This document shows positions 40,329-61,979 of a stretch of DNA of 64,000 bases, piece after piece; positions within the stretch are counted from its first letter, which is position 1, and every line of letters begins with the position of its first letter. The stretch is from Candidatus Bathyarchaeota archaeon (GTDB lineage: Archaea; Thermoproteota; Bathyarchaeia; Bathyarchaeales; Bathyarchaeaceae): the NCBI GenBank assembly GCA_963697165.1, contig CAVOMX010000014.1, forward strand, positions 69,140 through 133,139. The letters are read 5' to 3'. A program made the position numbers and the translations under genes. Under the pieces are notes generated by a model. The model was not told the origin of the DNA and did not search any database. It saw only the letters and a program-made list of their open reading frames with translations.

Positions 40329-40480
40329 TTTGACAAATGATTGAGCCGGAAGTTCCTGAAAGTGTTATCGCTTTTATTCAGTGAAGAGTTCCCCGTAGCA
40401 TTGTAGGGCGGAATTAAGCAGATTATTCTCCAGAGAAACTTGAACAGATTTATAAAAAAGCAAACTTGAAAATCCTATGT
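40329..40480 (+). repeat. Integrase 3'-end remnant (copy 1)
   Basis: MIEPEVPESVIAFIQ*RVPRSIVGRN*ADYSPEKLEQIYKKANLKIL. Confidence 0.9.
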
Positions 40481-40613
40481 TTTTCTCAGATTTCATTGTA
40501 TTTAAATAATTAAAAAAAGGTATTATACAAATTTCAAACACATATCGAATTACGTAATAACAGATATATTAAGACTTAAGTTATATAGCATGTTGAGAGG
40601 ACTGTGTTAGGTT

Positions 40614-40823
40614 ATGCATATTCGAAAAAATAAAACCGTTTTTAGGGAACGAAAAAAAGAAAACTTGGAATCCACCAAAGAAACAGTGAATAAAGAAAAA
40701 GTTTCAATGGCATGCTCTCACGCTTATGGATATTTGGCAGTTCGCCCTAAGAACTCTCCAATTCCTCAAGAATGTCTTTTCTGCCTGCAATTGATCGATT
40801 GCCTATACAACACTAAAAAATAA
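40614..40823 (+). CDS. Small Cys/His protein (CxHxxGYL...PIPxECxxC family)
   Basis: CSHAYGYL..RPKNSPIPQECLFC. Confidence 0.7.
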   Translation: MHIRKNKTVFRERKKENLESTKETVNKEKVSMACSHAYGYLAVRPKNSPIPQECLFCLQLIDCLYNTKK

Positions 40824-40963
40824 AAATTAGATATTCTTGAGTGCAATGAGCACGCATTGTTTTTCAAGGTTAAATAGGCTGAAACTGCCTCTAAGCAGAA
40901 ATTACTGAAGCAGTAAACAATAAACTCTAATAAGGATTATTTTAAATATGTAAAAGAACCAAA

Positions 40964-41248
40964 TTGCAGGATCAAGAAAAAAAATACACCTGCGAAAATC
41001 CCAAGTGTAAACATATTTTTGATACTCCAAAGTTAGTTCAGTACTATGCATGCCCTTTATGTTCAACTAAAGTAGCAAAGGAAACGATTGAACAGGGATG
41101 TTTACATTATTTTGGCTATCTTAGGGAACGTGAAAGTGGTGAACCTATACCAAGTGAATGTATAGAATGTAAAAAGAGTGTAGAATGTATGCTAACAAAT
41201 CTAACCTCAAAAGATGCGGTTGAAGAAATTCAGAAATGGTATAAATAA
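40964..41248 (+). CDS. Small Zn-ribbon + CxHYFGYL protein
   Basis: CENPKC...CPLC then CLHYFGYL...PIPSECIEC. Confidence 0.75.
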   Translation: MQDQEKKYTCENPKCKHIFDTPKLVQYYACPLCSTKVAKETIEQGCLHYFGYLRERESGEPIPSECIECKKSVECMLTNLTSKDAVEEIQKWYK

Positions 41249-41262
41249 GCAATGCGAGCGTG

Positions 41263-41368
41263 TTTTGTAGGAGCCCCCCGCTGCATTTTAGGAACACATT
41301 ATAGGGATTATTCTCCATAACGATTGAAAAGAATAAACGAAAAGGCTAATATGAAGGTGTTAAGTTGA
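41263..41368 (+). repeat. Integrase 3'-end remnant (copy 2)
   Basis: PRCILGTHYRDYSP*RLKRINEKANMKVLS*. Confidence 0.88.
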
Positions 41369-42089
41369 GGTTTTTCTTCTTTTTTAACACTGAAATCAGA
41401 AGTGTCACTGTAACTATTGTAAATATAAAGACTGGTATAGTAAATTCAGGAACGTTCTCTATTCTATTGGATTCGATTATTACCAATGATGCAGAAGCAT
41501 CCATAGAAGTTCCATTTACTAGAACGTCTGCCTCGAATGACAGTTCAGTGAGAACCCCCATTTCTTGATCCCAGAACATATCTACACTGAGATCGGAATA
41601 ATCTTCCCCTGAACTAAAATTATATGAATATACAAGATGGTTAGTTTCTCGAGAACCCCAATGATACATTTGAATTATGGTTTCATTTATTCTTTCATTA
41701 ATTTCTGATGCATAAAGCGAATCATTAGCATTCAAATCTGCTGAAACCAACCAATTCCTCAAATCTCCTTCACCAGTGATTAAATCTACCGAACCATTCT
41801 GGAAATGTTCTGTACCATTCTCAAAATGTACTGTAAACTGGCCTGTAACATTTATATCAGAAACATCCTGAATAGTTAGTGTAACCCATTCTCCCAGCAT
41901 AAAATCAGCAAAGGGAAAATCTTCAGAAGTCATATTTAATTCTGAATCCCATTGAAAACTAAAACCGTATTTGAACCAATCGCCTTCAGAAACGCCTGCT
42001 GTTCTAACTTGAGCAAAACCTAACTGGATGAGCAATGCAGTTGATAAAAGTAAAAAAAAATAAATCAAAAAGGATTTTTTCAATTTCAA
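41346..42089 (-). CDS. Secreted protein with PEF-CTERM-like sorting signal
   Basis: Signal peptide, GVSEGDWFKY, C-terminal VPEF + TM + KKKK. Confidence 0.8.
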   Translation of the reverse strand: MKLKKSFLIYFFLLLSTALLIQLGFAQVRTAGVSEGDWFKYGFSFQWDSELNMTSEDFPFADFMLGEWVTLTIQDVSDINVTGQFTVHFENGTEHFQNGSVDLITGEGDLRNWLVSADLNANDSLYASEINERINETIIQMYHWGSRETNHLVYSYNFSSGEDYSDLSVDMFWDQEMGVLTELSFEADVLVNGTSMDASASLVIIESNRIENVPEFTIPVFIFTIVTVTLLISVLKKKKNLNLTPSY

Positions 42090-42172: not shown

Positions 42173-42291
42173 AGATATATTGGTGCTTTCTGTGGAAAGC
42201 TCCCCCAAATCAGTACTGGGGAGGCATTATAATGACTAGAATCCTGAAAGGCTACAAAAAATCTATGAAAAAGCTAACCATGAGGGTGCTG
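42173..42291 (+). repeat. Integrase 3'-end remnant (copy 3)
   Basis: RYIGAFCGKLP/KSVLGRHYND*NPERLQKIYEKAN. Confidence 0.9.
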
Positions 42292-42350
42292 TTTTGGTTT
42301 TTTGTAAAAAAAAGTTCTAACTACTATTTAGAGGAAATGTTATAGCTAAA

Positions 42351-42770
42351 TTGCTCTTAAAACAGACGGGGGATGGATTTATGGATCTTGAAGAAGACGA
42401 GAATGTGATTTTAGATGAGGGCTTTTGGGGTTATAGGAAAAAGTTGGTATTAACTAATAAGCGTCTATTAGTTCAGAAAGGAAAAGGACTATTTCGGTTA
42501 ACATGGAAAATTGAAAATGAAATTCCTCTTGGAGAAATTGAAGAAGCTTATGGGATGATGGAAACTTTTACATCTCTTTCACTCTTAATTTTGAAGTTAA
42601 AAAATAATGAACAATTACATTTCAATTTTAGACTAACTGACTCTCAAATGCCTAGCTTAATGGGAGGTGCTGGAGCTTTAATTCCCTTGGAGGCCAAGGC
42701 AATTACAGACAAATATGTGACTGCAATCAATCACCAAATACAAAACAGAATTGGATGTTGTGGGATTTGA
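42351..42770 (+). CDS. PH-domain-like protein
   Basis: LEEDENVI...KLVLTNKRLL...EIPLGEI. Confidence 0.65.
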   Translation: MLLKQTGDGFMDLEEDENVILDEGFWGYRKKLVLTNKRLLVQKGKGLFRLTWKIENEIPLGEIEEAYGMMETFTSLSLLILKLKNNEQLHFNFRLTDSQMPSLMGGAGALIPLEAKAITDKYVTAINHQIQNRIGCCGI

Positions 42771-42988
42771 ATCCAGAAACATTTGAAAAAATTTCATCAA
42801 AATCACTAACTTTCATTAATGATTCAGCATTCATATATGAAAATGTATGCGGTCGTTTTTACGGTTTACTTGTGGGATTTTTTTGCTTGAATGAATGCGA
42901 AATCTAAAAGACTGGGAATTACGTAGCGAATTGCATCAAAAATTTTGTGTCGAGATCTTTATGGGAAGTCTCTTCAAAGATTGTTAAC

Positions 42989-43618
42989 CTAAATGTAAAG
43001 CATTGTAAATTCTACAACACCAACAGTCAATGAGATTAGTGTTCCTACGAGCGTTTGTGCGAAAGTGTGGTTTTTTAGTTTTATTCTGGACCAACCTACT
43101 AAGCCTACAATCAAAGATAATGGTAGGGCATTTATGCCAAATACGAAAATAAGCGCAAAAATTGGTCCAGTTACGCCAGCACAATGAACACTGACCTTCC
43201 AGAACAAATTAACAACCATAAGAATTATTGAAACAAGTGTGTAACCTAAAGCCAATAAATACATTATTTTGGTGTTGGTAACTAAGAAAATTACAGCCGC
43301 AAATGAATAACTGGTTATAGCAATCAAGAAAAAAGGTGTTCTGGCTTTTCTTTTTGAAACGTATAAATCGCCAACATTCTTTCGATACACATAAAGTACT
43401 GATAAAAAGGGGAAGAAAGCAAAGCAGAAAAAACAGAGCAGGATGCTAAAAGGTGCAGAAAGTAAACCCAAGCCAATAGGCGACCAGAGAGAAAAAGAGA
43501 CAGTTGCCACAAGGGCCAATGTTGGGGGAGCAACAAATATTGAGATGATATTTGCTAAATCATAGCCAATTTCGGTTTGAGAACTTTGGTTAGTGTGAGT
43601 CTTCTTTTTGAACACCAT
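42989..43618 (-). CDS. PAP2-like membrane protein
   Basis: WKVSVH, WSRIKLKNHT motifs; multiple TMs. Confidence 0.75.
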   Translation of the reverse strand: MVFKKKTHTNQSSQTEIGYDLANIISIFVAPPTLALVATVSFSLWSPIGLGLLSAPFSILLCFFCFAFFPFLSVLYVYRKNVGDLYVSKRKARTPFFLIAITSYSFAAVIFLVTNTKIMYLLALGYTLVSIILMVVNLFWKVSVHCAGVTGPIFALIFVFGINALPLSLIVGLVGWSRIKLKNHTFAQTLVGTLISLTVGVVEFTMLYI

Positions 43619-44248
43619 TCGGTTTATCTCTATTTTAGTTCATTCAATAGGTTTTTAAAATTTTATGAAAGGAAAATAAATAGTGGTAATTAGTCGTCTT
43701 CCTCATCAATAAGTGCAAAAAAATGCTTTTTTATTACTTTTTCTTTTTCACAAAATAACAGTAATATTAGATTATTTTTTTCTTGTTTATAATGACGTTA
43801 TTTATACTTTTTAATAGAACAAAAACTAATTTATGAGGATGTGAAATAATCGACCTAAAACGAAAAGGAAATCCCAATGTACTCAAAGTTGTTAACAAAT
43901 CAAATGTAAAAGATTTTAGAAAACTTCTAACATTGATGTCCATCACTTTTCATTTCCTTTTTGATTTATTTCAAATATTTTGGGTATTTTTCAACCACAC
44001 ATAGGAGAATCATCGTGATAAATCTGAATCTCAAACTTTAAATGTGTTCAGAATTGCATATTCAGATTTATAGCCCAGAGTCTACGCGGAATGAGCCACA
44101 AACTAACATCCAGCTTTAAAAACTGAAGCTACAAATTCAATGTAGGCGACAAGGTCACACACCAACAGAGACAAAGCCATAACCGCTATTTCTGCCCTGA
44201 ATGCTCAGAAAAACTAAGAATATCGAAACTCTTCAACCTCAATTACAA

Positions 44249-44605
44249 CTATGAAAACTTTGAAATAATAGGGTAGTTTGCAGCTTTCCAAGCTGTAATT
44301 CCGCCAAGAACATTATAAACTTTAGTGAAATTGTTGGAATCCAGAATTCTTGATGCATCAGAACTTCGAGCTCCAATATGACAGTAAACTACTATTTCTG
44401 TATCTTTGTATTGTAATAATTCATCAATTCTTGATTTCAGTTCTGTTACAGGCATTAAAATGGCATTGTCTAAATGTCCTTTATCATACTCGCTCTGAGT
44501 TCTCACGTCTAAAATTACTATGTTTGGATAATTGTCATCAGTAATCATATTGTGGGTAGTTATTGCATCTATATCTGTATATGGCATGTTATCAATCATA
44601 TTCAC
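44249..44605 (-). CDS. Rhodanese-like protein
   Basis: LDVRTQSEY..GHL..A, YCHIGARS, GGITAW. Confidence 0.9.
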   Translation of the reverse strand: MNMIDNMPYTDIDAITTHNMITDDNYPNIVILDVRTQSEYDKGHLDNAILMPVTELKSRIDELLQYKDTEIVVYCHIGARSSDASRILDSNNFTKVYNVLGGITAWKAANYPIISKFS

Positions 44606-44859
44606 GGATCTTAAAAAGAATATACATAGAATACTATCTTTAGCGTATAAACAGTATGGATAAAAGGGATTGTTTGACTGCTAAAAAGAGAAGAGCGACT
44701 AACCATTACTTCTGCTCCGACTGTGCCTCTAAATTTGGAAAGAGAAGTTATGTCTGGCACAAAAATGATGGAAAATTACTTAGATTTCTGGTAGTTAATT
44801 ACTGGTAATAATAACCTCCCCAATTCAAGCTCCAATCAACAAAATGTTGTGAAACAAAA

Positions 44860-44895
44860 GTGGACGGGGCGGGATTTGAACCCGCGGCTTCAGCG
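44860..44895. repeat. att direct repeat = 3' half of tRNA-Ala(GGC)
   Basis: 36 bp identical to 51251-51286. Confidence 0.93.
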
Positions 44896-45768
44896 CCAAA
44901 TTTAGTACATCAAAATAAGTTAAATGATTCTGAAATTGAAGGTGCACTAGAAAAATTCAGTGAATGGTTAGAAGTTAACGAACTTAGAAAACCAAGAATT
45001 ATACAACATCACACTCAATGAATTAGAAGTCTGTTAAGTGATGTGAGAATATGTCCCCCAACCAAAGAAGAATTCAGAAGTTACTTAAAAAAGGGGAAAA
45101 GAAGTTCTGGTGTTTATCATTATTCAAATACGATCAAAACGTTAAGAGTTTTCACTCGTTTTCTTGGACGTGAAGAAATAGGTAAAGTTTCAAGTTTCCA
45201 AGAATTGACAGGCCTATACTAGTTGCCAAAAATAAAAGTGAATTACAAAAGGTCTACAACGAAGGATTTTCTAATCTGGGTGATAGAGCCTTATTTCTAG
45301 TATTGGCAACATCTGGGCTTAGGCATCATGAAGCAACAGAACTAACACCAAATGATGAAAATTTAGATACGGGTATGGTTATTCCGAATAATGAACAAGC
45401 AATTATTAGGGGAACAAAAAATACTTTTGTAACTTTCATTAACTCAAGCAAAAATGGTTCTGAAGAAATTTATGGCTTCTCGAGAAAGTGGTGCGGACAG
45501 CAGAATATTCAGAAAAGGTTTTGGAAAGTCTGGGATAACGTATCGTTAGCATATAGCTTCCGAAAAGTCAGGAGTTAAGTTGATACTGAGTGATTTGCGT
45601 GATTGGTTCTGTAATGAAATGGGAAAGCGTGGAGTTGCCGATAGATATATCGATGCTTTCTGCGGTAGAGTCCCTCGTAGTATCGTGGGAAGAAATTACA
45701 CGGATTATTCTCCAGAAATATTGAAAGAAATCTATGAAAATGCAAACTTGACAATAGTATCAGACTAA
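44860..45768 (+). pseudogene. SSV1-type tyrosine integrase int(C) fragment, disrupted (contains tail copy 4)
   Basis: Frame starts in att (VDGAGFEPAAS); LATSGLR, TKNTFVTFIN, DLRDWF, FCGRVPRSIVGRNYTDYSPE; internal stops and frameshifts. Confidence 0.92.
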
Positions 45769-46250: not shown

Positions 46251-46402
46251 TTTGACAAATGATTTGCGGAAAGTTATTGAAAGTGCCAAATATTTTATTC
46301 AGTGAAGGTTTTCCCAAAGTATTCTTGGGAAGACATTATACGGATTATTCGCCAGAAAGGTTGAAAGAAATCTATAAAAAAACAAACCTGAAAGTATTAT
46401 CG
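46251..46402 (+). repeat. Integrase 3'-end remnant (copy 5)
   Basis: ...FIQ*...LGRHYTDYSPERLKEIYKKTNLKVLS; shares lesions with copy 1. Confidence 0.92.
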
Positions 46403-46485
46403 GGATTTAGAAGTCGTTCTCAGGATAATTTGCCAACAACCTTAAATTATTTTCAATTATAATAGATGCATTTAGGGGAAGGAAT

Positions 46486-46971
46486 ATGGCAATAGCTTCA
46501 GAATTCTTTACTACTTTACTGCTTTGGTTTACTCGAGCATTCATTTCAAGCTTAATTTGTTTAATAATCGGGATTATTTCAATAAAAGCCCTAACTCATA
46601 TCACAACTAAAATCAACGAATTCAAAAGCATTAAAGGAAATCCAATTGCGACAAGTCTGTTTGTAAGCGGTTTTCTAATCTTCGCAGGACTCGTTGTTTA
46701 TGGATCGATGGTTAATCCCTTTTTTCTAGGACAATCAGTCTTGTTTGCTTCATTTTTCAATCTGCAGCGACTCTTTGTTGTCGGATTAAGTTTTTTTGTA
46801 AGTTTAATTTTTGGGTGGCTGTTTTATTTTGTATTTGCTAAATTGACTCCTTTTGGAATTGATTTGGATGATATAAACAAATCACCTATAGCTGTAGGGG
46901 TTTTTCTTTTTGGATATGAAGTGTTCTTGGGTTTACTGATCTATGGAAGCCTTATGATCCCTCTAGGATGA
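46486..46971 (+). CDS. DUF350-like membrane protein
   Basis: Two repeats, INEFKSIKGNPIA and IDLDDINKSPIAVG; 4 TMs. Confidence 0.65.
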   Translation: MAIASEFFTTLLLWFTRAFISSLICLIIGIISIKALTHITTKINEFKSIKGNPIATSLFVSGFLIFAGLVVYGSMVNPFFLGQSVLFASFFNLQRLFVVGLSFFVSLIFGWLFYFVFAKLTPFGIDLDDINKSPIAVGVFLFGYEVFLGLLIYGSLMIPLG

Positions 46972-46984
46972 AAGTGGAAAATAA

Positions 46985-48049
46985 ATGAGACTTTCTAGAA
47001 AACTAAAACTATCTACTTTTATTATTACTATTTTATTGAGCATAAATATTGCTTACGCAATCCCTAGTGGAGGAGTATACCCTCCAGAATTTATCTATAA
47101 AAATGGATATTGGTATGATAGTTGGGATTATAACAGAAACTTCTACGCGGGGGAAGATGGATTTCTACCACATGTTGCGTATGAATCGCTTGGCTCTAAC
47201 AAAGAACTAGCATATGAAATTGGAGAATGGTTTGAAGAAAATTATGATAATAAAGTGGAAAGAGCTGAAGCAATTCTAAATTATGTCAAAGATGGACAGA
47301 TTATGGTTATGACGAAGATAATGTTTTCAGAAATGGCGTAGCTCAAGAAGAATGGGCATGGAATGCAGACGAAATGGCTTACATGTTTGATGAAACCACA
47401 TATTCAGTGGCAATCGGTGACTGTGAGGATATGGCTTTTCTATGTGCTACTTATATCTTGCTTCAAAAATTGAAGTAGCACTAGTTGAACCACCAGAACA
47501 TGTTGCATTACTTATTTGGCTCCCAGAATATGATAATGCAAACTATTATTGGGATATTCCAGATGATGGAAGAGATTATGGATGGATATGGGTTGAAGCA
47601 ACGAGGGAAGTTAATCCAATAGGTTGGACACCTCCGGATTATTCTGATGGAGACTGGATTTCTTACATTCTTGGATTCTCTAAATTTAGTATCGAATATT
47701 CACCAAAAAATCCGAAAGCAGAAGACGATGTAATAGTAAAGGCAACAATAGAAAGCGCAATCTCAACAATCAATACAGTTTTTCTTAATTACAAATTGGG
47801 AGCAATTCTCAGGAAATTCAAATGATTAAAAAGGGATCATACTATGAAGCAGTAATTCCAAATCAACCCGATGGAACAAAAGTAATAGGTACAGTTTATG
47901 CAATAGATTACGAAGATTTTACTTCAGAACAAAAATTCGAATACATAGTAGGGCAAGAATTTCAATTTCCTCCTTTTCTTTTCGAGGCAGGCATCATACT
48001 CTTCATAATCTTTCTATTAATTGTGGTTTTAGCACGCTCCAATAAATAA
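46985..48049 (+). pseudogene. Secreted transglutaminase-like protein split by frameshifts
   Basis: Signal peptide; GDCEDMA (intervening frame) ... HVALLI ... WIWVEAT; C-terminal TM; three ORF pieces. Confidence 0.7.
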
Positions 48050-48062: not shown

Positions 48063-48166
48063 TTTTGTGGTAATCCACTTAACATTTTTGAAGACATTAT
48101 ACTGATCATAGCCCAGAAAGATTGAAGAAAATCTATGAAAAAGCAAACAGCAAAGTATTATTTTAA
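48063..48166 (+). repeat. Integrase 3'-end remnant (copy 6)
   Basis: FCG...RHYTDHSPERLKKIYEKANSKVLF*. Confidence 0.92.
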
Positions 48167-48439: not shown

Positions 48440-48516
48440 GAGGGCATTACACCGATTTTAGTCCAGAACGGTTGAAGGAAATTTATGAAAAGGCTAATCT
48501 AAAGATATTTGATTAG
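48440..48516 (+). repeat. Integrase 3'-end remnant (copy 7)
   Basis: GHYTDFSPERLKEIYEKANLKIFD*. Confidence 0.92.
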
Positions 48517-48802: not shown

Positions 48803-49066
48803 ATGGTTGAAGATATTGTATGGCAAAAAAGACAACTGAGTTTTTTGAAAGAAAAATGGTTTTCCGAGAAAACAGAGTTAAAAGAAGTGACGAACCTACT
48901 AAAATGTGAACAATTACGCTCTACTGTGAAAATGTTCCATCACAACCAAGATGATATGCTGATTAAAAAACATCAAGTGGAAAGAAGAAGAATCATCGCT
49001 GAAATCGAAAAACTTGAATTTGAAATCGCGGATTTAGAATCAGAGCTTGAAAATATTTCTCATTAG
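48803..49066 (+). CDS. Hypothetical coiled-coil protein
   Basis: Clean 87-aa ORF, heptad-rich. Confidence 0.55.
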   Translation: MVEDIVWQKRQLSFLKEKWFSEKTELKEVTNLLKCEQLRSTVKMFHHNQDDMLIKKHQVERRRIIAEIEKLEFEIADLESELENISH

Positions 49067-49104
49067 TAAATCGTGAAAAAATCTTTGCTTAGGAGCTCAA
49101 ATCT

Positions 49105-49416
49105 TTGTTTCTTAGGAGAAGCAGAAAGTTAGATGTAGACTTGGGAGAGTTGAGGGATGAATGCCAAACCTTGTCCAGTTTCTTGATTTCTAAACTCAAG
49201 GCAGATGTAACTTCAAGCAACAATAAGATCTTTATTAAAACTGATTATTCATCTCCAAACGAATTAAAGAGACTAGTTAACAAGTTTATTTATCGTAGAC
49301 ATTTGAATTATCACTATTGGGTTGAGTTAGACGGTAATACTGTGAAAGTAAACAAGTACAAACGTTTTAAGAAAAAGGAAGAAGATGAGAAAAAAACTCG
49401 TGCCTCCAACAATTAA
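49105..49416 (+). CDS. Ribosomal protein eL22-like protein
   Basis: LSSFL..KL...ELKRLVNKFIYRRHL...WV resembles eL22 (YLKYLTKKYLKKNNL...RV). Confidence 0.5.
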   Translation: MFLRRSRKLDVDLGELRDECQTLSSFLISKLKADVTSSNNKIFIKTDYSSPNELKRLVNKFIYRRHLNYHYWVELDGNTVKVNKYKRFKKKEEDEKKTRASNN

Positions 49417-49509: not shown

Positions 49510-49555
49510 GATAGGGCAGGAATACGCGAAAAAATCTATGGAAGCAAACTTTCGA
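49510..49555 (+). repeat. Possible highly degenerate integrase tail (weak)
   Basis: GGGCAGGAAT...AAAAATCTATGGAAGCAAAC resembles the tail consensus. Confidence 0.35.
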
Positions 49556-49744
49556 CTCTTTTATTGAAAGTTGGCCTAAGAAGTAGATTGATTTCTTTGT
49601 TCTATTGGGTTTTGAGGTGATTGATTTTGAAGGAGTGGAAATGCGTGATAGTTGGTGATCATAAGAATGTTGGTGAAGTGATTTAAGAATGACAAAAGAA
49701 AGGCTGGCATCTCCATACTTATGCTTGTGCTGGAATTGGGGGAA

Positions 49745-49816
49745 TGATGGCCGTAAATCATTACTTGCTATTTGAAAAAGGTGAATAGGATAAAAGCAAA
49801 CTTGGTGATTCTCTAA
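49745..49816 (+). repeat. Degenerate integrase tail (weak-moderate)
   Basis: HY...LKKVNRIKANLVIL*. Confidence 0.5.
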
Positions 49817-50226
49817 TCTGATTTCAATGAAGAAATTATGTTAATTGCATTCTCAACCATTTTTTCATATTTATTGTTAGCTTTTTCACCAAAATACACT
49901 GGAATTCTGGTTCCTCTTGGATGAATAATTCTATTTCTCTCTTTTCGAATTTGGTTGATTTGGGTAAATTCTTTATCTTTAATTTGGTGCAACGTATAAA
50001 GAAAAACGGATAGATCATTAAGGGAAAGATTATCCAATTTCTTACCAAGTTTAATTCTACGATTCTTTAGAAATTCGGATATTCTCAAAACTCCAAACTT
50101 TTCCAGATAGGCAGCTGACAATATAATCGCTGGTTTCCAATCAATTTCTTTTGTTTTAATGGCCATCTCTGAAAGAACTTCCAATTCCATCTCTTCACTA
50201 TAAATAACTGTTGCATTGGACAACAT
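49813..50226 (-). CDS. Putative HEPN-like protein
   Basis: AIILSAAYLE helix plus RNRIIH (R-x4-H) motif. Confidence 0.55.
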   Translation of the reverse strand: MLSNATVIYSEEMELEVLSEMAIKTKEIDWKPAIILSAAYLEKFGVLRISEFLKNRRIKLGKKLDNLSLNDLSVFLYTLHQIKDKEFTQINQIRKERNRIIHPRGTRIPVYFGEKANNKYEKMVENAINIISSLKSD

Positions 50227-50344: not shown

Positions 50345-50842
50345 TTAGAAACTGTTGAAGCTAAACATTTCTTCAAATGGTTTCTTCTTTCTTGGTTTTG
50401 GCTGTTCGGCAGGATAACCAAAGGTTACCAACGCAACAATTTTCCATTTATCAGGGATTTTCAGCAATTCCTTAACTTTTTCTTCGTTGCAAGCTCCTAT
50501 CCAACATGAACCGATCCCTAAAGTCCACGCGGCAATAACCATGTTCTGCATTGCAATTGTAGCGTCAACAACGGCCCATTTTCCAGTCAAAAGCGATTTT
50601 ATGTCTGCACACCCAACAATAGCGACGGGAGCATATTTGACAAAACGGGTAATCAAATTATCGCACAAGTTCTTTAGTATATCATGATCCTTCACAACGA
50701 CGAAACGAATAGGCTGTCTATTAGCAGCTGAAGGAGCCTGTCTGCCAGCCTCAAGAATTTGCTGCAAAACCTCTTCAGGTATATCTTTGTTTTCATAGCG
50801 TCTAATGCTCCTTCGGCTGAGAATCAAATCAAGAAGAGACAT
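50345..50842 (-). CDS. Nitroreductase family protein
   Basis: RRSIRRY, APSAANRQP, GIGSCWIG, GYP. Confidence 0.93.
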   Translation of the reverse strand: MSLLDLILSRRSIRRYENKDIPEEVLQQILEAGRQAPSAANRQPIRFVVVKDHDILKNLCDNLITRFVKYAPVAIVGCADIKSLLTGKWAVVDATIAMQNMVIAAWTLGIGSCWIGACNEEKVKELLKIPDKWKIVALVTFGYPAEQPKPRKKKPFEEMFSFNSF

Positions 50843-50911: not shown

Positions 50912-51015
50912 GGGCAGAATCTGGAAACGTTCTGGCTAAACACTACAATCCACATTGAATAGAGAGATTAAAAGAAATCTATGAAAAAGCGAACTTAATG
51001 ATGCTTAATCAGTAA
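50912..51015 (+). repeat. Integrase 3'-end remnant (copy 9)
   Basis: GRI/GNVLAKHYNPH*IERLKEIYEKANLMMLNQ*. Confidence 0.85.
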
Positions 51016-51248: not shown

Positions 51249-51326
51249 TGGTGGACGGGGCGGGATTTGAACCCGCGGCTTCAGCGATGCCAACGCTGCG
51301 ATCATTCCAGGCTGATCTACCCGCCC
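51249..51326 (-). tRNA. tRNA-Ala(GGC)
   Basis: GGGCGGG acceptor with G3:U70, arm CAGCG-TTGGCAT-CGCTG, encoded CCA. Confidence 0.95.
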
Positions 51327-51468: not shown

Positions 51469-51543
51469 GGGCCGGTCGTCTAGTCTGGTTAGGACATCTG
51501 CTTGACGTGCAGAAGGTCGCCGGTTCAAATCCGGTCCGGCCCA
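51469..51543 (+). tRNA. tRNA-Val(GAC)
   Basis: GGGCCGG/CCGGCCC acceptor, TCTGC-TTGACGT-GCAGA arm. Confidence 0.95.
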
Positions 51544-51745
51544 CCTTTGAAATTTCTCTTTTTCTTAAAAGAGAACATTCACTAAGAGAAAATGGCTTGT
51601 TTTGGTCGCTTAAATAGCTTAAAATTTTATTTAAGGATTTTTCTGTGACTCTTGATAGATTTAAGCTTTGATCTCTGGCTTTTTTGACAAGTTTCCTATT
51701 GAGATATAGACTAATGGTCGTTTTGGTTGCAGTATTAATGGTGTT
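51500..51745 (-). pseudogene. Integrase int(N) fragment reading into tRNA-Val
   Basis: TTISLYLNRKLVKKARDQSLNLSRVTEKSL...KVGRTGFEPATF in frame; homologous to 57583-58104. Confidence 0.85.
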
Positions 51746-52065: not shown

Positions 52066-52173
52066 TTATGCTAACACTATGAGGTTAGCCTCTTCGTAGA
52101 TTCTAAGTAATCTTTCAGAATTATAGTCAGTATAATGGCGGACCAAAACAGACGTGGCTGTACGACCACAGAC
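52066..52173 (-). repeat. Integrase 3'-end remnant (copy 10)
   Basis: VCGRTATSVLVRHYTDYNSERLLRIYEEANLIVLA*. Confidence 0.92.
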
Positions 52174-52651
52174 CCGAACGCATAATATTTATTTCAAAAT
52201 AATTGATTTGAAAAGGTATATGCGACATAATTAATATAATCAGAATGTGCATGTAATTTGAGAATAATGTGGTATTGATGGCGAGTGGTTTACTGGTTTC
52301 AATAAAAAATGGCTGCAATTTGAAACTTGAAAACGTTAATCCTGTATAAGAATTTGAAGGCTTAAAATTACGTAACAAGTATGGTTTCGATTTGGGCGGG
52401 TATACTTTGGGGGAGAAGATTCACGTTATTTTGAAGTATGTTAACAAGAGGTGAAACCAAAATTTATCTGGAGGATAATAAAATTGAGGTGGAGTCAATC
52501 ATGAACAAAGTGATAAATAAAGCGGTTGAAGATTTTAGTGTTGATGAAAAAGATCAAAAAGAAATATACATCATGCTAAAGAAACATGGTTGTTGCTATT
52601 TTTAATAAGAAACTGCCTGTATGGTGTGACCCCGCAAAAAAAGAGGGGCAG

Positions 52652-52870
52652 TTAATCTTTCAATCTATTACTGGTCATCATTAGAACATAAAACATAAGG
52701 CTACGTAAAACAAAGGCAAGAATAAAAAGAATTGCCGTTAGCAGCAATGCGTCTGTATAGGAAACTGCACCCCATATTACTTGAGACCAAATAATAATCA
52801 TTGAGATAGCTAAAATGAGTTCAATTGTCCAATTAGGAATACTCATTTTCTCCCCAAATGAACTACTCAA
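52652..52870 (-). CDS. Small 2-TM membrane protein
   Basis: Two hydrophobic helices. Confidence 0.5.
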   Translation of the reverse strand: MSSSFGEKMSIPNWTIELILAISMIIIWSQVIWGAVSYTDALLLTAILFILAFVLRSLMFYVLMMTSNRLKD

Positions 52871-53055
52871 GAATTAGAATATTAGCATTTCCACTGCGGG
52901 AATCCTAAAAGAAGAGAAATAGGCAAGTTATTTCCTTTTGCGGAACAGCTTTAGCCCATCCATATCGGTCACATACATAAAACCCGATTGAAAAAGTTTA
53001 CATAGTTTTGCGAACGTTCTAATTAGTGGATAAAATTTGCATAAATTAGTAATAG

Positions 53056-53424
53056 ATGGGGGTTGTAAAGATGCCAAAATATTTAGTTCAAATTGAATAT
53101 CAAATCAAGGCTTGGACTGCTCTGGTAAGGGAGCCTCAAGACCGCCTGGAAATTGCAGGTCCAATCGTAAAGACTCTTGGAGGAAGCATAGAATGTGCTT
53201 ATTTATCATTTGGTAAGTATGACTCAATGGCAATTCTTGACATGCCCGATAACGTATCAGCATCATCCCTTTCTATGGCTCTCCTAGCAAGTGGAGTATT
53301 CAAAAGAATTAAAACCACTCCACTTTTGACATGGGAAGAAGGTGTGGAAGCCATGAAAAAAGCAAAAAAAGCAGCTTATCAACCTCCAGACGACGGTTCG
53401 GTTTATCTCGACAGATCAAGCTAA
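53056..53424 (+). CDS. GYD-domain protein
   Basis: MPKYL...LGGSI...SFGKYD...TTPLL. Confidence 0.85.
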   Translation: MGVVKMPKYLVQIEYQIKAWTALVREPQDRLEIAGPIVKTLGGSIECAYLSFGKYDSMAILDMPDNVSASSLSMALLASGVFKRIKTTPLLTWEEGVEAMKKAKKAAYQPPDDGSVYLDRSS

Positions 53425-53484
53425 AATGGTCAAATTTGAATTCTCTTCACCCAATAAAAATCCATCCAAATTGTTGATGTCTCA

Positions 53485-53892
53485 ATGGCAATTAAAAAAT
53501 CTACAATAATTCAAAAGATCATTGTCAAGGCTTCACCCAAAGAAGTTTATGAAGCTTTAATAGATCCAAATAAACACTCCGAGTTCACGGGAAGTAAAGC
53601 TACTGGAAATCCGAATATAGGTACTAAGTTTACAGCTTGGGACGGATATATACATGGTAAGAATCTTGAACTTGTAGAAGGCAAAAAAATTGTCCAAAAT
53701 TGGGTTACAACTGACTGGCCTCAAGATTTTCCTCCCTCGAGATTAGAGTTGTCATTTAAAGAGTTAGAAGATAAAACAGAAATCACAATGGTACATTCGG
53801 ATGTCCCAATCACCCAAGAGGCTGATCTAAGGCAAGGGTGGATCGACTTCTACTGGGAACCATTAAAAGAGTATTTTGAAAGAAAATCATGA
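53485..53892 (+). CDS. SRPBCC/AHSA1-domain protein
   Basis: ASPKEVYEAL, FTAWDG, KIVQNW, GWIDFYW. Confidence 0.9.
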   Translation: MAIKKSTIIQKIIVKASPKEVYEALIDPNKHSEFTGSKATGNPNIGTKFTAWDGYIHGKNLELVEGKKIVQNWVTTDWPQDFPPSRLELSFKELEDKTEITMVHSDVPITQEADLRQGWIDFYWEPLKEYFERKS

Positions 53893-54164: not shown

Positions 54165-54382
54165 CATTTAAAAAACCTTCAAAGCACCAAGAACATTCTT
54201 GTAGACATAGCTTGAACTATTCAAATCTCCTAGATAATGGTGAACAGACTCAATCCTAACCTTTCCAGGATTAACTTCGTTAAAGAATCTGCAAATACAG
54301 TATACTTTTTATTAGCTGTTTTCTCTTATCTCTGCAAATCCACAATCTCAAACCCCAAAAAAACTCTAAGGACAGACTGAAC
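54165..54382 (-). pseudogene. Integrase int(C) fragment (core-binding part) downstream of Val att
   Basis: VLRVFLGFEIVDLQR*EKTA...ICRFF...HYLGDLNSSSYVYKNVLGALKVF. Confidence 0.75.
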
Positions 54383-54429
54383 GCTTGACGTGTGGAAGGT
54401 CACCGGTTCAAATCATGTCCGACCTACCA
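54383..54429 (+). repeat. Degenerate att = 3' half of tRNA-Val(GAC)
   Basis: 39/46 identical to 51500-51545. Confidence 0.88.
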
Positions 54430-55874: not shown

Positions 55875-55876
55875 TA

Positions 55877-56933: not shown

Positions 56934-57028
56934 GGGCCCGTGGTCCAGTTGGTTAACTCCATTTGAGGCCAAAAGACGCTTCCCTCACGCGGAAGAGATC
57001 GCCGGTTCAAATCCGGACGGGCCCACCA
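56934..57028 (+). tRNA. tRNA-Val(CAC) with 18-nt D-loop intron (56956-56973)
   Basis: CTTCC-CTCACGC-GGAAG arm; BHB with central helix TGGT/GCCA; encoded CCA. Confidence 0.9.
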
Positions 57029-57057
57029 CCAATTCGATACCAGTTCAGAGGTTTTCC

Positions 57058-57596: not shown

Positions 57597-57699
57597 GCCG
57601 AGGTAGCTCAGCTTGGGAGAGCACTCGACTCAACACACAAAGTTGAGGGTGAAGCTGAAGACCGAGTTGTCGCCTGTTCAAATCCGGCCCTCGGCACCA
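57597..57699 (+). tRNA. tRNA-Phe(GAA) copy 1, 26-nt intron at 30/31 (57628-57653)
   Basis: Splicing gives CTCGG-CTGAAGA-CCGAG; hBHBh' with CACT/GGTG; one T-stem mismatch. Confidence 0.85.
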
Positions 57700-57755
57700 C
57701 CCTGCACCTTTTTTCAAAAAGCTTAAAAAACCAGTTGTTGTTCTTGTTGAGTGGC

Positions 57756-57854
57756 GCCGAGGTAGCTCAGTTTGGGAGAGCACTCGACTCAACAAAGTTG
57801 AGGGTGAAGCTGAAGACCGAGTTGTCGCTGGTTCAAGTCCGGCCCTCGGCACCA
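57756..57854 (+). tRNA. tRNA-Phe(GAA) copy 2, 22-nt intron at 30/31 (57787-57808)
   Basis: Same BHB, intact T-stem, encoded CCA. Confidence 0.92.
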
Positions 57855-58104
57855 TTACACTTTCTTTCAGAAAAGAACCTGTACTAAGAAAAACTGAGGT
57901 TTGTTTATCGTTTTGTGGTTCTAAATAGTCTAAAATGCTGATTAATGTCTGTTCTGTTATTCTACTTAAATTTAGATTGTTTTTTCTAGCCCTTTTAACT
58001 AAATTAGTGGGTAGAGTGATACCTACTGTCTTTTTCCTTATTTTCACTTTCACTCGAGTATTCTCGGGTTCATTACTCGAGTAATTATTTTTTATTGGAA
58101 TCAT
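57810..58104 (-). pseudogene. Integrase int(N) fragment (RHH/CcdA-like N-terminus) reading into tRNA-Phe
   Basis: KKTVGITLP.NLVKRARKNNLNLSRITEQ...VPRAGLEPATT. Confidence 0.85.
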
Positions 58105-58664
58105 GTTTTATTATTTCCTTTTTTTAATATATATGATTCATTTTTAACTTGAACAATATCAATTATTTTCAGTCCTTCTTTCTTTCTTTTCTCTTGTAAT
58201 TTTTTTATTAAATCAATTTGAATCTGAGCGATTCCTAGTTTAAGAAGTCCTTTATCATCCAATTCCACAGGAAATTTTGATGTTTTTGATAAATCCTGCC
58301 AAAATGGCTCCATTTTCTCTATTTCTTTTTTGGTTAGGATTCTAGCATGTCCTTCTTGAGACAGATTTGCTATGGTTTCTAACCATTGTATGTTAGCTTT
58401 TTCAAGTTCATCATTTGAGTAGTTAAGAAGCAATTGTTTTCCTTTTAACTCAATGAAATATTTTCCACGTCTACCTTCTCGAGAAATATTGCCTTTTTCA
58501 TATTCTTCGTTTAAATATTTGTTAATAGTTCCCCTTGAATAGCGATCTTTTCCTTCTTCAACCAATTCCTCAAAACTCATTTGTCCTTTTTTTAAAAGAG
58601 TGTTCAATATCCAAATTGGACACGCTTCTCTTGCGGATTTGCCCTGCATCCAATAAACATCCAA
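58101..58664 (-). CDS. Winged-helix DNA-binding protein
   Basis: MSFEEL...YSRGTINKYL...GNI.R..RGKY HTH pattern. Confidence 0.7.
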   Translation of the reverse strand: MDVYWMQGKSAREACPIWILNTLLKKGQMSFEELVEEGKDRYSRGTINKYLNEEYEKGNISREGRRGKYFIELKGKQLLLNYSNDELEKANIQWLETIANLSQEGHARILTKKEIEKMEPFWQDLSKTSKFPVELDDKGLLKLGIAQIQIDLIKKLQEKRKKEGLKIIDIVQVKNESYILKKGNNKT

Positions 58665-58704
58665 ACTTTATACTAAATATAAACTATATACTTGTATTTT
58701 AGTT

Positions 58705-58911
58705 TTGTTAGTGTATAAGTGGAGCGTGTTATCGTTAAGTCCCCTGATTAAGAAAATCATCGACATTGGAGGAACAAGTAGAGGGATTATTTTACCTAAG
58801 TCTTGGTTACACTATTTTGAAAAACTCAACGGGCAACCAATCAAAAAGGTTGGCATGGAGATCAATGGGAAAATCGTGATTTGGCCGATTTTGAAGGAGT
58901 GGGAGACTTAG
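58705..58911 (+). CDS. AbrB/MazE-type DNA-binding protein
   Basis: KKIIDIGGTSRGIILPKSW. Confidence 0.75.
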   Translation: MLVYKWSVLSLSPLIKKIIDIGGTSRGIILPKSWLHYFEKLNGQPIKKVGMEINGKIVIWPILKEWET

Positions 58912-59072
58912 AGAAAGTGGTGAGTGTGTATGTTTGTGTGTTGTCGTCTGTCTTCTCTTACTTCTTATCTTCTATCTTCTATGTACTACATAATTCTCTT
59001 CATTCATATTCTACCACTCATTCACAACCCTTTCAATACACACATACAGACACACTCGCATGGAGGCTTCTA

Positions 59073-59312
59073 ATGGTTAGAAGAGATGGAGCAGAAGTCA
59101 GAAAAGAACGCATTCAAGAGATTGCTCGACTGATTCATCGTTCTCTTCATACTCACGGAGAAATTCCTTTGTCAAAAACTCTGGCAACAATACAATACGA
59201 GTTTGGATTAACCCGAGACAAAATCCAAGATTATATAGGAATACTGGAAGGTTTAGGCCAGTTCGTTATCGAGAAAGAACAGGACAAAATCAAAAAGATA
59301 ACAGATGGCTGA
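59073..59312 (+). CDS. Small wHTH-like MGE protein
   Basis: MVRRDGAEVRKER...FGLTRDKIQDYIGILE; upstream ORF part is low complexity. Confidence 0.6.
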   Translation: MVRRDGAEVRKERIQEIARLIHRSLHTHGEIPLSKTLATIQYEFGLTRDKIQDYIGILEGLGQFVIEKEQDKIKKITDG

Positions 59313-59317
59313 AAACA

Positions 59318-59659
59318 TTGGTTTTGCTGACACTTGTTGATGGCAAAAAGGGCCCCGAAGATATTCTTGTTTTGGTGACTTCGTATAATGAACCCTTAAC
59401 TTTCGCTGAATGGCTTTTTATCGGCAAGTGTTACTTAGATTCAGAAGCTAGTTATTATCCAATTAAAGAAGGGTACATTGGCCAGGCAATGTTAATTCAT
59501 GCAATAAACGAGTTAGCTCTTGGAGTAGATTTTGAGCAAGTCCTGAAAAGATACAAGTTGAAACGGAAAGGAAAAAATCTCAAAGTAATTGACAAACGAA
59601 AGAGTTTGAAAACTTTAGATTACGCTAAGTATAGAGGGGGCATTGTTAATCAAGTATGA
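59318..59659 (+). CDS. Hypothetical MGE protein
   Basis: 113-aa ORF in a tight operon. Confidence 0.55.
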   Translation: MVLLTLVDGKKGPEDILVLVTSYNEPLTFAEWLFIGKCYLDSEASYYPIKEGYIGQAMLIHAINELALGVDFEQVLKRYKLKRKGKNLKVIDKRKSLKTLDYAKYRGGIVNQV

Positions 59660-59955
59660 AAAATTCTCCAAATCTCAAAAGAAGCCTAAAAAACTGTTCT
59701 TCAAAATCTAATGAGGTTGTTAATCGGAATCTAATTCTCCAATGGTTAAAAGAAGACATTGAGTTTCTTCGATAGATGGCTCGATGTAAAAATCCGATAA
59801 AGAATCCAATTCGTGTCAAATTGTTAAGAGCTTCGATTTATGGTTGCTCTGTTTTGCTTTCCGGTTTGAAGGATGAAGAGTTGGAGCTAAGAGTTGTTGA
59901 GTTAGAAGAAAAACTGAAAAATGGAGTGTTAATCCCAGTTGAAAAGCGTAAATAA
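59656..59955 (+). pseudogene. Small MGE protein with one internal TAG (~59772)
   Basis: Single frame from ATG overlapping the upstream stop to ...LKDEELELRVVELEEKLK...*. Confidence 0.55.
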
Positions 59956-60544
59956 GAAACTAAATGAACTGGAGAATAATGTTCTCCCCGAATTACCTGA
60001 GCAAGCTAAAATTTACATAAAGAATGAGGCTGAAATCGAATTATCAAGAAACGCTCAAGCAATCCGAAATATGCTTCCTGATGTTTCAAAGATCTGGAAA
60101 AATCCAAATTTAACACTCCAAGAAAAAGAAGAGAAAACAACAGCAATCTATCAGGAACTTTCAGCTAAACAAAAACTAATACTTAGTAGAGACTCGGCAT
60201 TTATGACTCGACGATTACGGGATTTAGTTGTGACGTATTTTAAAACAAGTTTTCCAGAGAACAGTGAAAAACCATTCCTGAGAGTTGAATGGTTCTTTAC
60301 CGAGATGGATAAACTAGCTCATGCTGAGCATATAATAGATTCAGAATGGAATCATGATAGAGACGAGGATAACCCAGATTTTGACGATTTTATCTGGTGG
60401 GATCGAGTGGACTTGAAAATACAAGAACTTTATCCGGAAGGAATATTCACCGAAGAGAGTTGGAATAAAACACGTGAGCTATATGACAAAATACAATCAG
60501 AATATATGGTTCAATACTGGCAAGCATCATCCAGAAGAGTTTGA
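59939..60544 (+). CDS. Hypothetical MGE protein
   Basis: 201-aa ORF overlapping the previous gene. Confidence 0.6.
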   Translation: MKSVNKKLNELENNVLPELPEQAKIYIKNEAEIELSRNAQAIRNMLPDVSKIWKNPNLTLQEKEEKTTAIYQELSAKQKLILSRDSAFMTRRLRDLVVTYFKTSFPENSEKPFLRVEWFFTEMDKLAHAEHIIDSEWNHDRDEDNPDFDDFIWWDRVDLKIQELYPEGIFTEESWNKTRELYDKIQSEYMVQYWQASSRRV

Positions 60545-60604
60545 AAGACTAACAAAGAAACTGGAACATGTCTAACATTCACCCCAAAATAGCAATTGCA
60601 TTTT

Positions 60605-61666
60605 TTACCAGTACCATCTCAAAGTAGAAAACAACATAGTACCTACAAAAAGAAGAATGATCATCAAATTAAGTAAAAACATACCAACATTTGGTTTAGC
60701 ATTAAAGATTTTAGCATAAATCCAATATATAGGCAATATTACAATGGCGTATCTGTGCACATTTGCAACTATGGAATAAAAAAGTAAAATTATCAAATTC
60801 GCTAAAGAATAGCCATAGTATTTTGCATCTTTACTTGTTCCTTTCCAATTTAATGTGAATATAGTTAAGGCTAGATCTTTTGACAGAAAGATGAAAAAGA
60901 ATGGAAGAATAACTAAACAGTATTCAATCGAAAATAATATTGCATATTCTATTTCAATGTCAGCTAATTGAATTAAGAAAAAAGATGGGGTTCCCCAATA
61001 TTGTCTAGACACTATCTCACGTATTGGAAAAAGTCCAGTAGATAAATACCCATAAAGATTGAACAGCAAGTATGGTGTAAAAACAAGAAAGGCTTGAAAA
61101 ATAATTTTAAGGCTACGTTCTTTAAATCCGTCATAGAGAAATGGGATAAAACTAAGAAACCCGTTACTTCTTGTTAAACCTGATAAGAAACCGAAAAGTG
61201 TTAATTTTATAATTTTTCCTTTTTCGAGAAAATAAAATGCGACTAAAGTTAAAGTCATGAATAAACTTTCTGAATATACACAAGAATAGAATAGTGAACC
61301 CGGCCAAAAAGCGAAAAAGAGTGAAGAATAGAAACCCAACTTCCTATTTCCTAATACCAACTCACTAAGTTTGTAGAACAGAATCAGATTGACAAAGAAA
61401 AGAATATTACTTATCAAAAAACCTGCCAGAATAACTGCTTGAATTGAGTTTAGTAGTCCAAAAAAAGGCTGTCCTAGAACACGCATTGAAACGGGAAATA
61501 AGGGAAACCAAGTCCAATGATGACTCAAGGGATTGATTATGGAAGGATAACCTCTGAGAGCGATTTGAGCATACCATCCGCTATCCCACCGACTGAAAAG
61601 ATTTACAATGGGCATTCCTAATTCCCATAATTGCTCAGTCGGTATCTTTGGATTAACTCCAATCAT
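60605..61666 (-). CDS. GT-C mannosyltransferase (PIG-V/Mannosyl_trans2-like)
   Basis: RWDSGWY..IA..GY, FPLFP, YSESLF, TRSNG; multi-TM. Confidence 0.85.
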   Translation of the reverse strand: MIGVNPKIPTEQLWELGMPIVNLFSRWDSGWYAQIALRGYPSIINPLSHHWTWFPLFPVSMRVLGQPFFGLLNSIQAVILAGFLISNILFFVNLILFYKLSELVLGNRKLGFYSSLFFAFWPGSLFYSCVYSESLFMTLTLVAFYFLEKGKIIKLTLFGFLSGLTRSNGFLSFIPFLYDGFKERSLKIIFQAFLVFTPYLLFNLYGYLSTGLFPIREIVSRQYWGTPSFFLIQLADIEIEYAILFSIEYCLVILPFFFIFLSKDLALTIFTLNWKGTSKDAKYYGYSLANLIILLFYSIVANVHRYAIVILPIYWIYAKIFNAKPNVGMFLLNLMIILLFVGTMLFSTLRWYW

Positions 61667-61841
61667 AGAATCCGATACTATAGCAATAAAGAAAACTAGT
61701 GCTCTTGAAAGTAATCCTATAAAAAGAACCTTTACATAACCTGTGATTCGCCAATGGTAATCCAGTTTTTCACTGAAATTATGAAAAATTTGACTTCCCC
61801 CAAATAGCCTTTTTACTATTTAGGCATTCAATTTTTAAGTT

Positions 61842-61979
61842 TTAGCTAAGAATTCTCAAGTTTGCATTTTCATAAATTACTTTTAATCGTTCTGGACTAT
61901 AATCCACATAATACCTCTCTAAGATACCGCTGGGTACTCTTTCACAAAAGTATCAATACGTCTATCAGAAGAACTAAGA
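61842..61979 (-). repeat. Integrase 3'-end remnant (copy 11)
   Basis: SSDRRIDT/FCERVPSGILERYYVDYSPERLKVIYENANLRILS*. Confidence 0.92.

Follow-up and report, generated by a model that had tools for sequence, protein, structure and literature searches.

Suicidal integrases of the SSV1, pTN3, and pT26-2 type are tyrosine recombinases of the PF16795 family that carry the attachment site (att) within their own gene. On integration their gene is split in two, int(N) lying beside the tRNA and int(C) at the opposite end of the element, and many tRNA genes serve as targets (PMC8371274, PMC7253208; statements drawn from cited papers refer here to the parts of their text that were available). Tandem insertions of such elements are argued to rebuild an active integrase and to be unstable (PMC7253208). 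In tycheposon islands and related tandem accretion, small elements made of an integrase and cargo reuse one tRNA and leave degenerate remnants (bioRxiv 10.1101/2020.12.28.424599; PMC6563490). Integrons, including archaeal ones (bioRxiv 10.1101/2022.02.06.479319), hold short accessory units common to several lineages, with a co-oriented, loosely conserved repeat beside a tyrosine recombinase gene. Here we describe a 64,000-nt stretch of a Candidatus Bathyarchaeota contig (CAVOMX010000014.1, positions 69,140 to 133,139; hereafter the window) and related loci, in which leftover 3' ends of suicidal-type integrase genes, called tails here, stand between cargo genes beside tRNA genes. These tail arrays are integron-like in effect and are not integrons. 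They form an apparently undescribed, lineage-wide variant of suicidal-integrase islands, with the integrase's own 3' end as the joint between cargo units. No description of integrase-tail arrays was found in the literature searched (partial coverage, supplements excluded), and the available text of PMC11697101, PMC11529989, and bioRxiv 10.1101/2024.05.22.595293 does not mention them. The source genome of the window, whose homologues carry names that also point to a Bathyarchaeia-type host, is designated G000; other G numbers are genomes of relatives and L numbers individual loci. Positions given as 'model' are those of the integrase profile.

The integrase of locus L003 matched PF16795 with 39.7 bits (cut-off 27) and PF00589 with 43.3 bits (cut-off 27.1). 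The alignment of the family (A1) showed invariant R161, K190, R248, R271, and Y281, which we take to be the catalytic residues of a tyrosine recombinase. Structure matches of the family integrase included SSV1-type enzymes at 5e-7 and, better, XerA at 9e-24. Intact int(C) frames in relatives start within a tRNA fragment, and att copies open int(C) in the window, L021, L027-L031, L080, L081, L093-L096, L102, and L103. Full-length homologues have an N-terminal CcdA-like domain, and in many loci this domain stands next to the tRNA as int(N). Simple elements measured from a few kb to ~11 kb and showed the order att, int(C), cargo right after the stop codon, int(N), tRNA. In the typical island, att-int(C) lies farthest from the tRNA, tails and then a core lie between, and int(N) lies at the tRNA. 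Given the att in frame, the int(N)/int(C) split, and the PF16795 match, these elements belong, as far as their sequence tells, to the SSV-type suicidal integrase elements, and their integration and excision are predicted. They resemble the SSV1, pTN3, and pT26-2 integrases also in using many tRNA targets. The published sets are, in the available text, without tandem insertions at one site, whereas here as many as 8-10 orphan 3' ends, left by different integrases, stand between the cargo genes of a single island. The present elements further differ in coming from a mesophilic sediment lineage and in having a CcdA-like ribbon-helix-helix domain as int(N). Profile searches of G000 found no intact integrase copy, and no int(N) was found beside tRNA-Ala of the window. 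Viral contigs gave 4 distant relatives only, with 25-33% identity.

Two further observations concern these elements. A second, more divergent suicidal integrase subfamily is present at tRNA-Gly, on contig C8 (~30640-31520) and in L023:10699-11566, with its 3' end fused to a tail core of the first subfamily. Ku- and LigD ligase/polymerase-like genes (labelled by eye) adjoin an integrase island in G009 (L028:5060-8112).

An earlier note on the window, made from the sequence alone, had listed 11 clear and two weak integrase 3' ends. Repeat finding, six-frame translation, and tblastn recovered all 11 with the same positions and strands (Table 1); the weak copies lie at ~49529-49552 and ~49792-49816. 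Each tail aims at tRNA-Ala, tRNA-Val, or tRNA-Phe, as the note had said, and its comparison with SSV1-type integrases split at tRNA att sites was borne out by the att inside the reading frame, the int(N) at the tRNA, and the PF16795 match. Its upper spacing of 3.4 kb in the left array agreed with our values, and the lower end was 0.38 kb start to start, not ~0.3 kb. The tails generally span the catalytic Tyr, as proposed; the shortest copy (50257) is without the Tyr codon. Only 44896..45768 joins an integrase body to a tail, so the single body-bearing copy stands, with the addition of a separate 5' int(C) piece (54171-54358) in the tRNA-Val element. This element also retains an att copy (54383-54428), cargo, a tail, and int(N). 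Missing from the earlier list was the 36-nt tRNA-Ala copy (44860-44895) that opens the frameshifted int(C); relative to this att pair, three tails of the left array lie outside and five clear tails inside. Among the cargo labels, rhodanese, nitroreductase, and DUF350 passed the Pfam cut-offs, HEPN fell below its cut-off, and PAP2 and PEF-CTERM drew zero Pfam or NCBIfam matches. The eL22-like label is a lead only (Atlas rank 7, score 0.87, family on 33% of members). Read by eye from its anticodon arm, the tRNA at 57756 is an intron-containing Phe(GAA) gene, and it has a tandem duplicate at 57597. The intron interrupts the anticodon loop at a non-canonical position, and ARAGORN failed to call or miscalled this tRNA.

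To measure the bias toward the 3' end, 128 integrases were aligned, 19 profiles, each 30 residues long, were made along the alignment, and remnants scoring ≥12 bits were counted. The same windows on reversed translations gave 0 matches at this threshold in all 19 cases. Across G000 there were 21 clear 3'-only remnants and one doubtful, 2 long remnants, and 2 5'-only remnants (one orthologous pair); further matches were 3 weak middle pieces (one inside another recombinase) and 2 on tRNAs. Scanning the whole 2-Mb genome with a DNA matrix derived only from intact integrases yielded 22 matches ≥14, all at integrase remnants on contigs C14, C12, C5, and C8. In simulated decay of 6 intact genes, the detected fraction at 10% change was 0.83 and 0.93 for upstream windows vs 0.83 for the tail, and at 20% change 0.26 and 0.38 vs 0.23. 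Detection in these windows, just upstream of the tail, was at least equal to that of the tail itself, so the truncation is real. The full-length profile gave 92 matches in all 25 genomes of the genus. By hand count 37 were short 3'-only pieces (15 in G000, 22 in 6 of the 24 others), most of the remainder were long copies or other recombinases, and only 2 5'-only pieces of this family occurred outside G000. Among the matches listed, 3'-only pieces also came from further families within the order and from further orders within the class. Strict pattern scans found 1 locus in metagenome contigs and 4 in genome contigs, and were too strict.

The anatomy of the tails was followed in 55 further loci, a biased sample as they were chosen because they hold matches; C12 and L074 were dropped from the counts as near-duplicates. 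Together with the window they held 70 short and 33 long remnants. Short remnants with a tRNA within 12 kb pointed to it in 40 of 46 cases, and those with a long integrase nearby were co-oriented with it in 29 of 30, the exception being the tRNA-Val tail of the window. In L068, L069, L097, and L104, some family integrases begin at the tRNA, share its orientation, and lead away from it. The tail in L068 follows the direction of its away-pointing integrase, which indicates that the rule is co-orientation with the integrase and not direction toward the tRNA.

The window tails are 53-84% alike. Pairwise differences among 10 window remnants at codon positions 1, 2, and 3 were 0.33, 0.18, and 0.46, and this excess at third positions indicates that the tails come from different, once-functional integrase genes. 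Among the pairs compared, the best identity of any tail to the long integrase of its own island was 0.80. Local duplication of the integrase end (target-site duplication) was rejected as an origin on this ground, the only exception being a 43-nt patch in L066. An Rfam scan of the tails assigned no family, the only matches of note being tRNA-type. GC-rich alternating filler, seen by eye at tail 5' junctions in some loci, was not significant (p=0.06).

Recombination between tails is visible in strain comparisons. A second copy of the region in the bin, C12 (181159-203109), is 95-99% identical to window positions 36635-57701 and is probably a co-binned sister strain. It lacks a stretch of 1.4 kb that runs from tail 48063 to the weak tail 49529, and the crossover falls in 10 shared bases covering the I-Y-E codons. 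Four indels separate C12 from the window; one, of 2.45 kb beside tRNA-Ala, carries a further tail and shows no att duplication. Contigs of 4 sequencing runs, aligned at 85% likeness, gave weak joints of a mixed population, one of which skips 48147-49625 like C12, with the intervening letters not known.

Near arrays of different genomes, 27 shared blocks were listed, and five cargo units end in tails. These are the nitroreductase (window, tRNA-Met island of G019, G076), the HEPN-like gene (window, tRNA-Gly island of G003), the PEF-like gene (41346..42089, with an identical downstream tail junction in the tRNA-Val island of G003 and in the metagenome locus L106), and DUF996-like and M16-peptidase-like genes (labels by eye; G019/G003 and G003/G009). 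Tail 50257 is a mosaic, its left half like G003 and its right half and flank like G019. At the nitroreductase tail, the window and G076 have an identical upstream junction and differ in integrase subfamily, which points to a crossover upstream of the core. In L066 the flanks of an intact int(C) and of its first tail belong to different subfamilies, and between these flanks the two are identical over 43 nt. None of 5,253 remnant pairs has a longer run of identity. Runs of ≥22 identical nt were present in 7 of 112 pairs from the same array, 2 of 120 from the same genome, and 6 of 944 from different genomes (permutation p=0.001), values that kinship and shared gene pools may inflate. Crossovers and patches lie at model positions 285-288, ~264-276, and 262-275, with no fixed base; a preference for 282-288 is possible. 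From these comparisons of sequences the tails are judged to recombine, and tail-bounded units to be lost or shuffled between strains and lineages.

Cargo is also often tail-free in relatives; so is the DUF350 unit in every one of the 5 genus relatives examined, and so are most nitroreductase copies. Nitroreductase 50345-50842 has copies of 89-93% DNA identity in three or more families of the order. Most of these are tail-free; those in L118 and L120 keep a few bases of tail junctions, flanked by GC-alternating filler.

The arrays share with integrons the short accessory units, the co-oriented, loosely conserved repeat by a tyrosine recombinase gene, and units common to lineages. They differ in that the repeat is a piece of the integrase gene and not a folding attC, the integrase is not IntI, the cargo lies on both strands with its own promoters, and there is no single crossover base. 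The integron integrase model TIGR02249 scored 47.7 bits against a cut-off of 265, and the IntI4 structure matched over profile positions 39-171 only. Paired attC core boxes were not found together in any of 9 window tails. As IntI, attC, a fixed crossover, and a common gene orientation were all looked for and not found, the arrays are not integrons; they partly work like one. With tycheposon-type islands they share the small integrase-cargo elements, the reuse of one tRNA, and the degenerate remnants. Tycheposon-type scars are partial tRNAs and unspecified integrase fragments, whereas here the scar is the integrase 3' end, it recombines, and att copies are rare (one against 9 clear remnants at tRNA-Ala; islands of relatives have no more than two). 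So few copies do not give the partial tRNA between successive elements that marks tandem accretion of the tycheposon or CIME kind. Thaumarchaeal elements show tandem accretion and fragments, and the available text describes no selective 3'-end scar (PMC6563490). Int-pTN3 (PMC5495485) is a suicidal integrase that recombines homologous segments other than att and so a candidate enzyme for tail-to-tail events. Its shortest recombined segment shared 104 bp, and the tails share at most 43 identical bases, short of the ~100 bp this would ask for.

The earlier note had offered two explanations, that the tail acts as a recombination or homology site for capturing cargo as an analogue of attC, or that serial integration was followed by deletion sparing the cargo-proximal end. 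The rarity of other integrase segments and the turnover of tail-bounded cargo between close strains and between genomes favour the former. The shared 5' breakpoint that the note proposed to look for was ruled out: the 5' ends of the 70 short remnants are scattered over model 212-283, none of these positions being common to all, and additional scars begin at 285-292. This scatter favours the latter for the origin, as do the missing attC-like fold and dyad, the crossovers at more than one base, and the intermediates that have lost the body and kept the tail. Tails as homology-type joints made by decay, a combination of the two, fit better than an attC-like site-specific system.

The explanation we prefer, in which we place about even confidence, is decay followed by shuffling. 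Small att-int(C)-cargo-(core)-int(N) elements, of the kind seen in relatives, would arrive repeatedly at one tRNA. Tandem arrival would rebuild a whole integrase and an att in mid-island, and this instability may select for loss of the middle block, so that islands would persist where microhomology-mediated deletions had removed it. The int(C) 3' end would be spared because cargo starts within tens of bases of the stop codon; the integrase stop lies a median of 69 nt from a convergent next gene (n=15) and 223 nt from one on the same strand (n=17). Tails would then be the only sequence common along an island and between islands. Short-homology recombination of tail with tail or int(C), with host microhomology-mediated end joining (MMEJ) or homologous recombination assumed, would delete, swap, and carry cargo blocks, with crossovers most often in the least degenerate codon run (the I-Y-E-K-A stretch). 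Intermediates with the body deleted and the tail spared were found. In L106, att and the first ~35 int(C) codons are joined to a tail core through 12 shared bases, also present in the related L021 integrase; in L073 a tail is joined to int(N); and in contig C8 a second-subfamily integrase end is joined to a tail core. These three point to microhomology deletion, and MMEJ with 2-50 nt of homology has been shown in Haloferax (PMC12281630). Tandem arrival left a rebuilt int(N)-att-int(C) in L070 and L096 and two att copies in L022. The later recombination is reflected in one tail-to-tail indel, five tail-bounded blocks, and one conversion-like patch.

Several points weigh against decay followed by shuffling. 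Tandem insertion of suicidal elements was unobserved in Thermococcales and Archaeoglobales (PMC7253208, available text). Remnant lengths are bimodal, with 68 of the 70 short remnants starting at model ≥235, only 3 of the 33 long ones starting at 120-170, and few remnants ~180 to 650 nt long; this weighs against random deletion, from which many intermediate lengths would be expected. In the loci examined, int(N) remnants were seen only at the last, tRNA-proximal tail and at none of the other tail junctions. One G019 island has 7 internal tails and a single core with int(N); to explain such islands by deletion, many losses of several kb each are required. A search for Ku in G000 (81% complete) was negative. 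Only 1 of the 4 C12-window indels is tail-bounded, and that indel may be a loss or a gain. The missing intermediate lengths, the missing internal int(N), and the seven tails with one core fit better with short tails propagated with their cargo by tail recombination, including into the int(C) end. Growth of this kind is possible but rather doubtful as the main process: circles or fragments of cargo plus tail would insert by homology into the int(C) 3' end, restoring it, or into any tail, so that one element accumulates cassettes and deletions only seeded the first tails. It would account for the island layout with the intact copy farthest from the tRNA, the last tail 88 nt from int(N) in L023, the cargo and downstream tail junctions common across tRNAs and families, and the L066 patch. 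It accords less well with the contig data, where no circle or gain was observed and joints were weak, with the low likeness of the tails, whose identical runs are mostly <25 nt, with the often tail-free cargo of relatives, and with internal att-int(C) having tails on both sides (window, L022, L023), where tandem arrival also happens. Tentatively, and well short of even confidence, a second, independent integron-like route may exist, in which the last ~30 codons of the suicidal integrase are the insertion site and orphan ends are cassette joints. Excision and insertion of cargo-plus-tail units, through the integrase or through short-homology recombination of the host, would restore the integrase 3' end each time, and selection on cassette mobility would maintain tails across Bathyarchaeia.

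Ordinary decay alone would make the tails inert debris of serial integrations, with the shared blocks explained by whole composite elements moving and by random deletion. The scattered 5' ends agree with this, as do the three indels without tail boundaries and the similar debris of tycheposon islands (bioRxiv 10.1101/2020.12.28.424599). The core gave no clear signal for or against selection at the DNA level: stop codons occur in the core as well (7 of 660 codons vs 15 of 855 upstream), and C12-window substitutions were not clearly lower there (7/207 vs 18/352 in the 5' part), a comparison clouded by a detection that favours the tail core. We nevertheless consider decay alone unlikely, since it leaves the mosaic tail 50257, the tail-to-tail indel, the 43-nt patch, and the excess of long identical runs within arrays without a cause. 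A true site-specific site of the attC or dif type in the I-Y-E-K-A-N-L codons, used by the family integrase or host XerA, appears very unlikely. The five junctions with a recognisable partner do fall in model codons 282-288 and many minimal tails start at 283-287, but 283, where starts pile up, is also the limit of detection, scars begin past the core, plain microhomology exists at each junction, and the crossovers at the nitroreductase tail and the L066 patch lie upstream of the core. The best 11-nt arm match for dyad symmetry in the core was 6.33 vs 6.49 in codon-shuffled controls, and attC-type folding of 9 window tails on both strands was no better than in shuffles (z -1.9 to +1.4). Retention of the tails as terminators (T-rich reverse strand) or promoters of neighbouring cargo has hardly any probability. 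Convergent genes do end a median of 27 nt from the tail (n=34); after 62 tails, however, 34 genes were convergent and 28 on the same strand, and such a function sets no upper tail length and leaves the mosaics unexplained.

Table 1. Features of the window; positions are those of the 64,000-nt stretch.
Feature	Position	Strand	Remark
Integrase 3' tail	40329..40480	+	probably begins ~40310; 5' part resembles second integrase subfamily; absent from C12 copy
Cargo: two small Cys-containing proteins	40614..41248	+	pair tail-free in G003
Integrase 3' tail	41260..41368	+	
Cargo: predicted secreted protein, C-terminal PEF-like motif	41346..42089	-	no Pfam/NCBIfam match
Integrase 3' tail	42173..42296	+	
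Cargo block, no tails between genes	42351..44605		139-aa protein (+), 209-aa membrane protein (-), rhodanese (-)
att copy	44860..44895	-	36 nt identical to 3' part of tRNA-Ala(GGC)
Frameshifted int(C) pseudogene, suicidal-type tyrosine integrase	44896..45768	+	sole body+tail copy
Integrase 3' tail	46251..46405	+	75% like 40329 tail
Cargo: DUF350 and frameshifted downstream gene	46486..48049	+	unit tail-free in 5/5 genus relatives examined
Integrase 3' tail	48063..48166	+	left end of 1.4-kb indel; crossover within 48128-48137
Integrase 3' tail, inside 1.4-kb indel	48440..48516	+	
Cargo inside indel: 87-aa coiled-coil protein, 103-aa protein (eL22-like lead only)	48803..49416	+	
Weak core-only tail	49529..49552	+	right end of indel; crossover within 49531-49540
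Decayed small gene, DUF4177-like	49590..49788	+	intact homologue below cut-off; elsewhere after tail or int(C)
Weak scar, final 8 tail codons only	49792..49816	+	
Cargo: HEPN-like protein (below Pfam cut-off)	49813..50226	-	gene and tail junction also in G003 tRNA-Gly island
Minimal tail, 15 codons	50257..50301	+	left half common to G003; right half and flank common to G019
Cargo: nitroreductase	50345..50842	-	tail-bounded in G019 (tRNA-Met island, 86%) and G076 (another family, 92%)
Integrase 3' tail, closest to tRNA-Ala	50912..51015	+	
tRNA-Ala(GGC), left-array anchor	51249..51326	-	
tRNA-Val(GAC)	51469..51545	+	
int(N) remnant, CcdA-like ribbon-helix-helix, running into tRNA-Val	51596..51736	-	
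Integrase 3' tail of tRNA-Val element	52066..52190	-	
tRNA-Val element cargo: small membrane protein, GYD-domain, AHSA1/SRPBCC genes	52652..53892		
5' piece of int(C), model positions 32-97	54171..54358	-	
att copy, 85% identical to tRNA-Val 3' part	54383..54428	+	
Two tandem intron-containing tRNA-Phe(GAA) genes	57597..57854	+	57597-57699, 57756-57854
int(N), CcdA-like (weak match), running into tRNA-Phe	57898..58032	-	
Element core-like genes	58101..60544		58740-60550 = 83% identical to block beside tRNA-Val int(N) in G019
Integrase 3' tail of tRNA-Phe element	61842..61979	-	island runs off contig end at 64000

Several further observations were made in the window. A 5' remnant of a rhodanese gene (40125-40307) stands directly before tail 40329, and an intact rhodanese (44500-44682 region) precedes att-int(C) and tail 46251. 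This paired arrangement, with the two tails 75% alike, suggests two related tandem arrays or a deletion derivative. Blocks 46436-48036 and 40501-41248 are adjacent and tail-free beside tRNA-Phe in G003 (L149), which indicates one ancestral block, split in the window between two tail-bounded places. A 220-nt conserved piece after the weak tail had been suspected to be an RNA and proved to be the decayed DUF4177-like gene. The stretch 45770-46220 after int(C) is a conserved spacer of non-coding appearance, 75% alike in G019, and 48255-48345 is a stem-loop-like stretch with a motif similar to that spacer; neither had an Rfam match. At 56982-57027 there is a tRNA-like 3' fragment (78% to tRNA-Val) with a longer insert before it, possibly an intron-containing tRNA missed by ARAGORN. 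The ribosomal-protein region holds repeated stretches at 32479-32889 and 35471-35675 that are 78-91% identical.

Little has been described of how Bathyarchaeia, which abound in sediments, exchange genes. The tails offer a simple marker for their accessory-gene islands. Cargo units move between different tRNA islands, as seen for one nitroreductase at 86-92% identity across families. The finding also bears on suicidal integrases in general: tandem insertion was thought too unstable to see, yet these islands hold the ends of up to ~ten different integrases. Should insertion at the integrase's own tail prove true, it would amount to a cassette system that has neither attC nor IntI.

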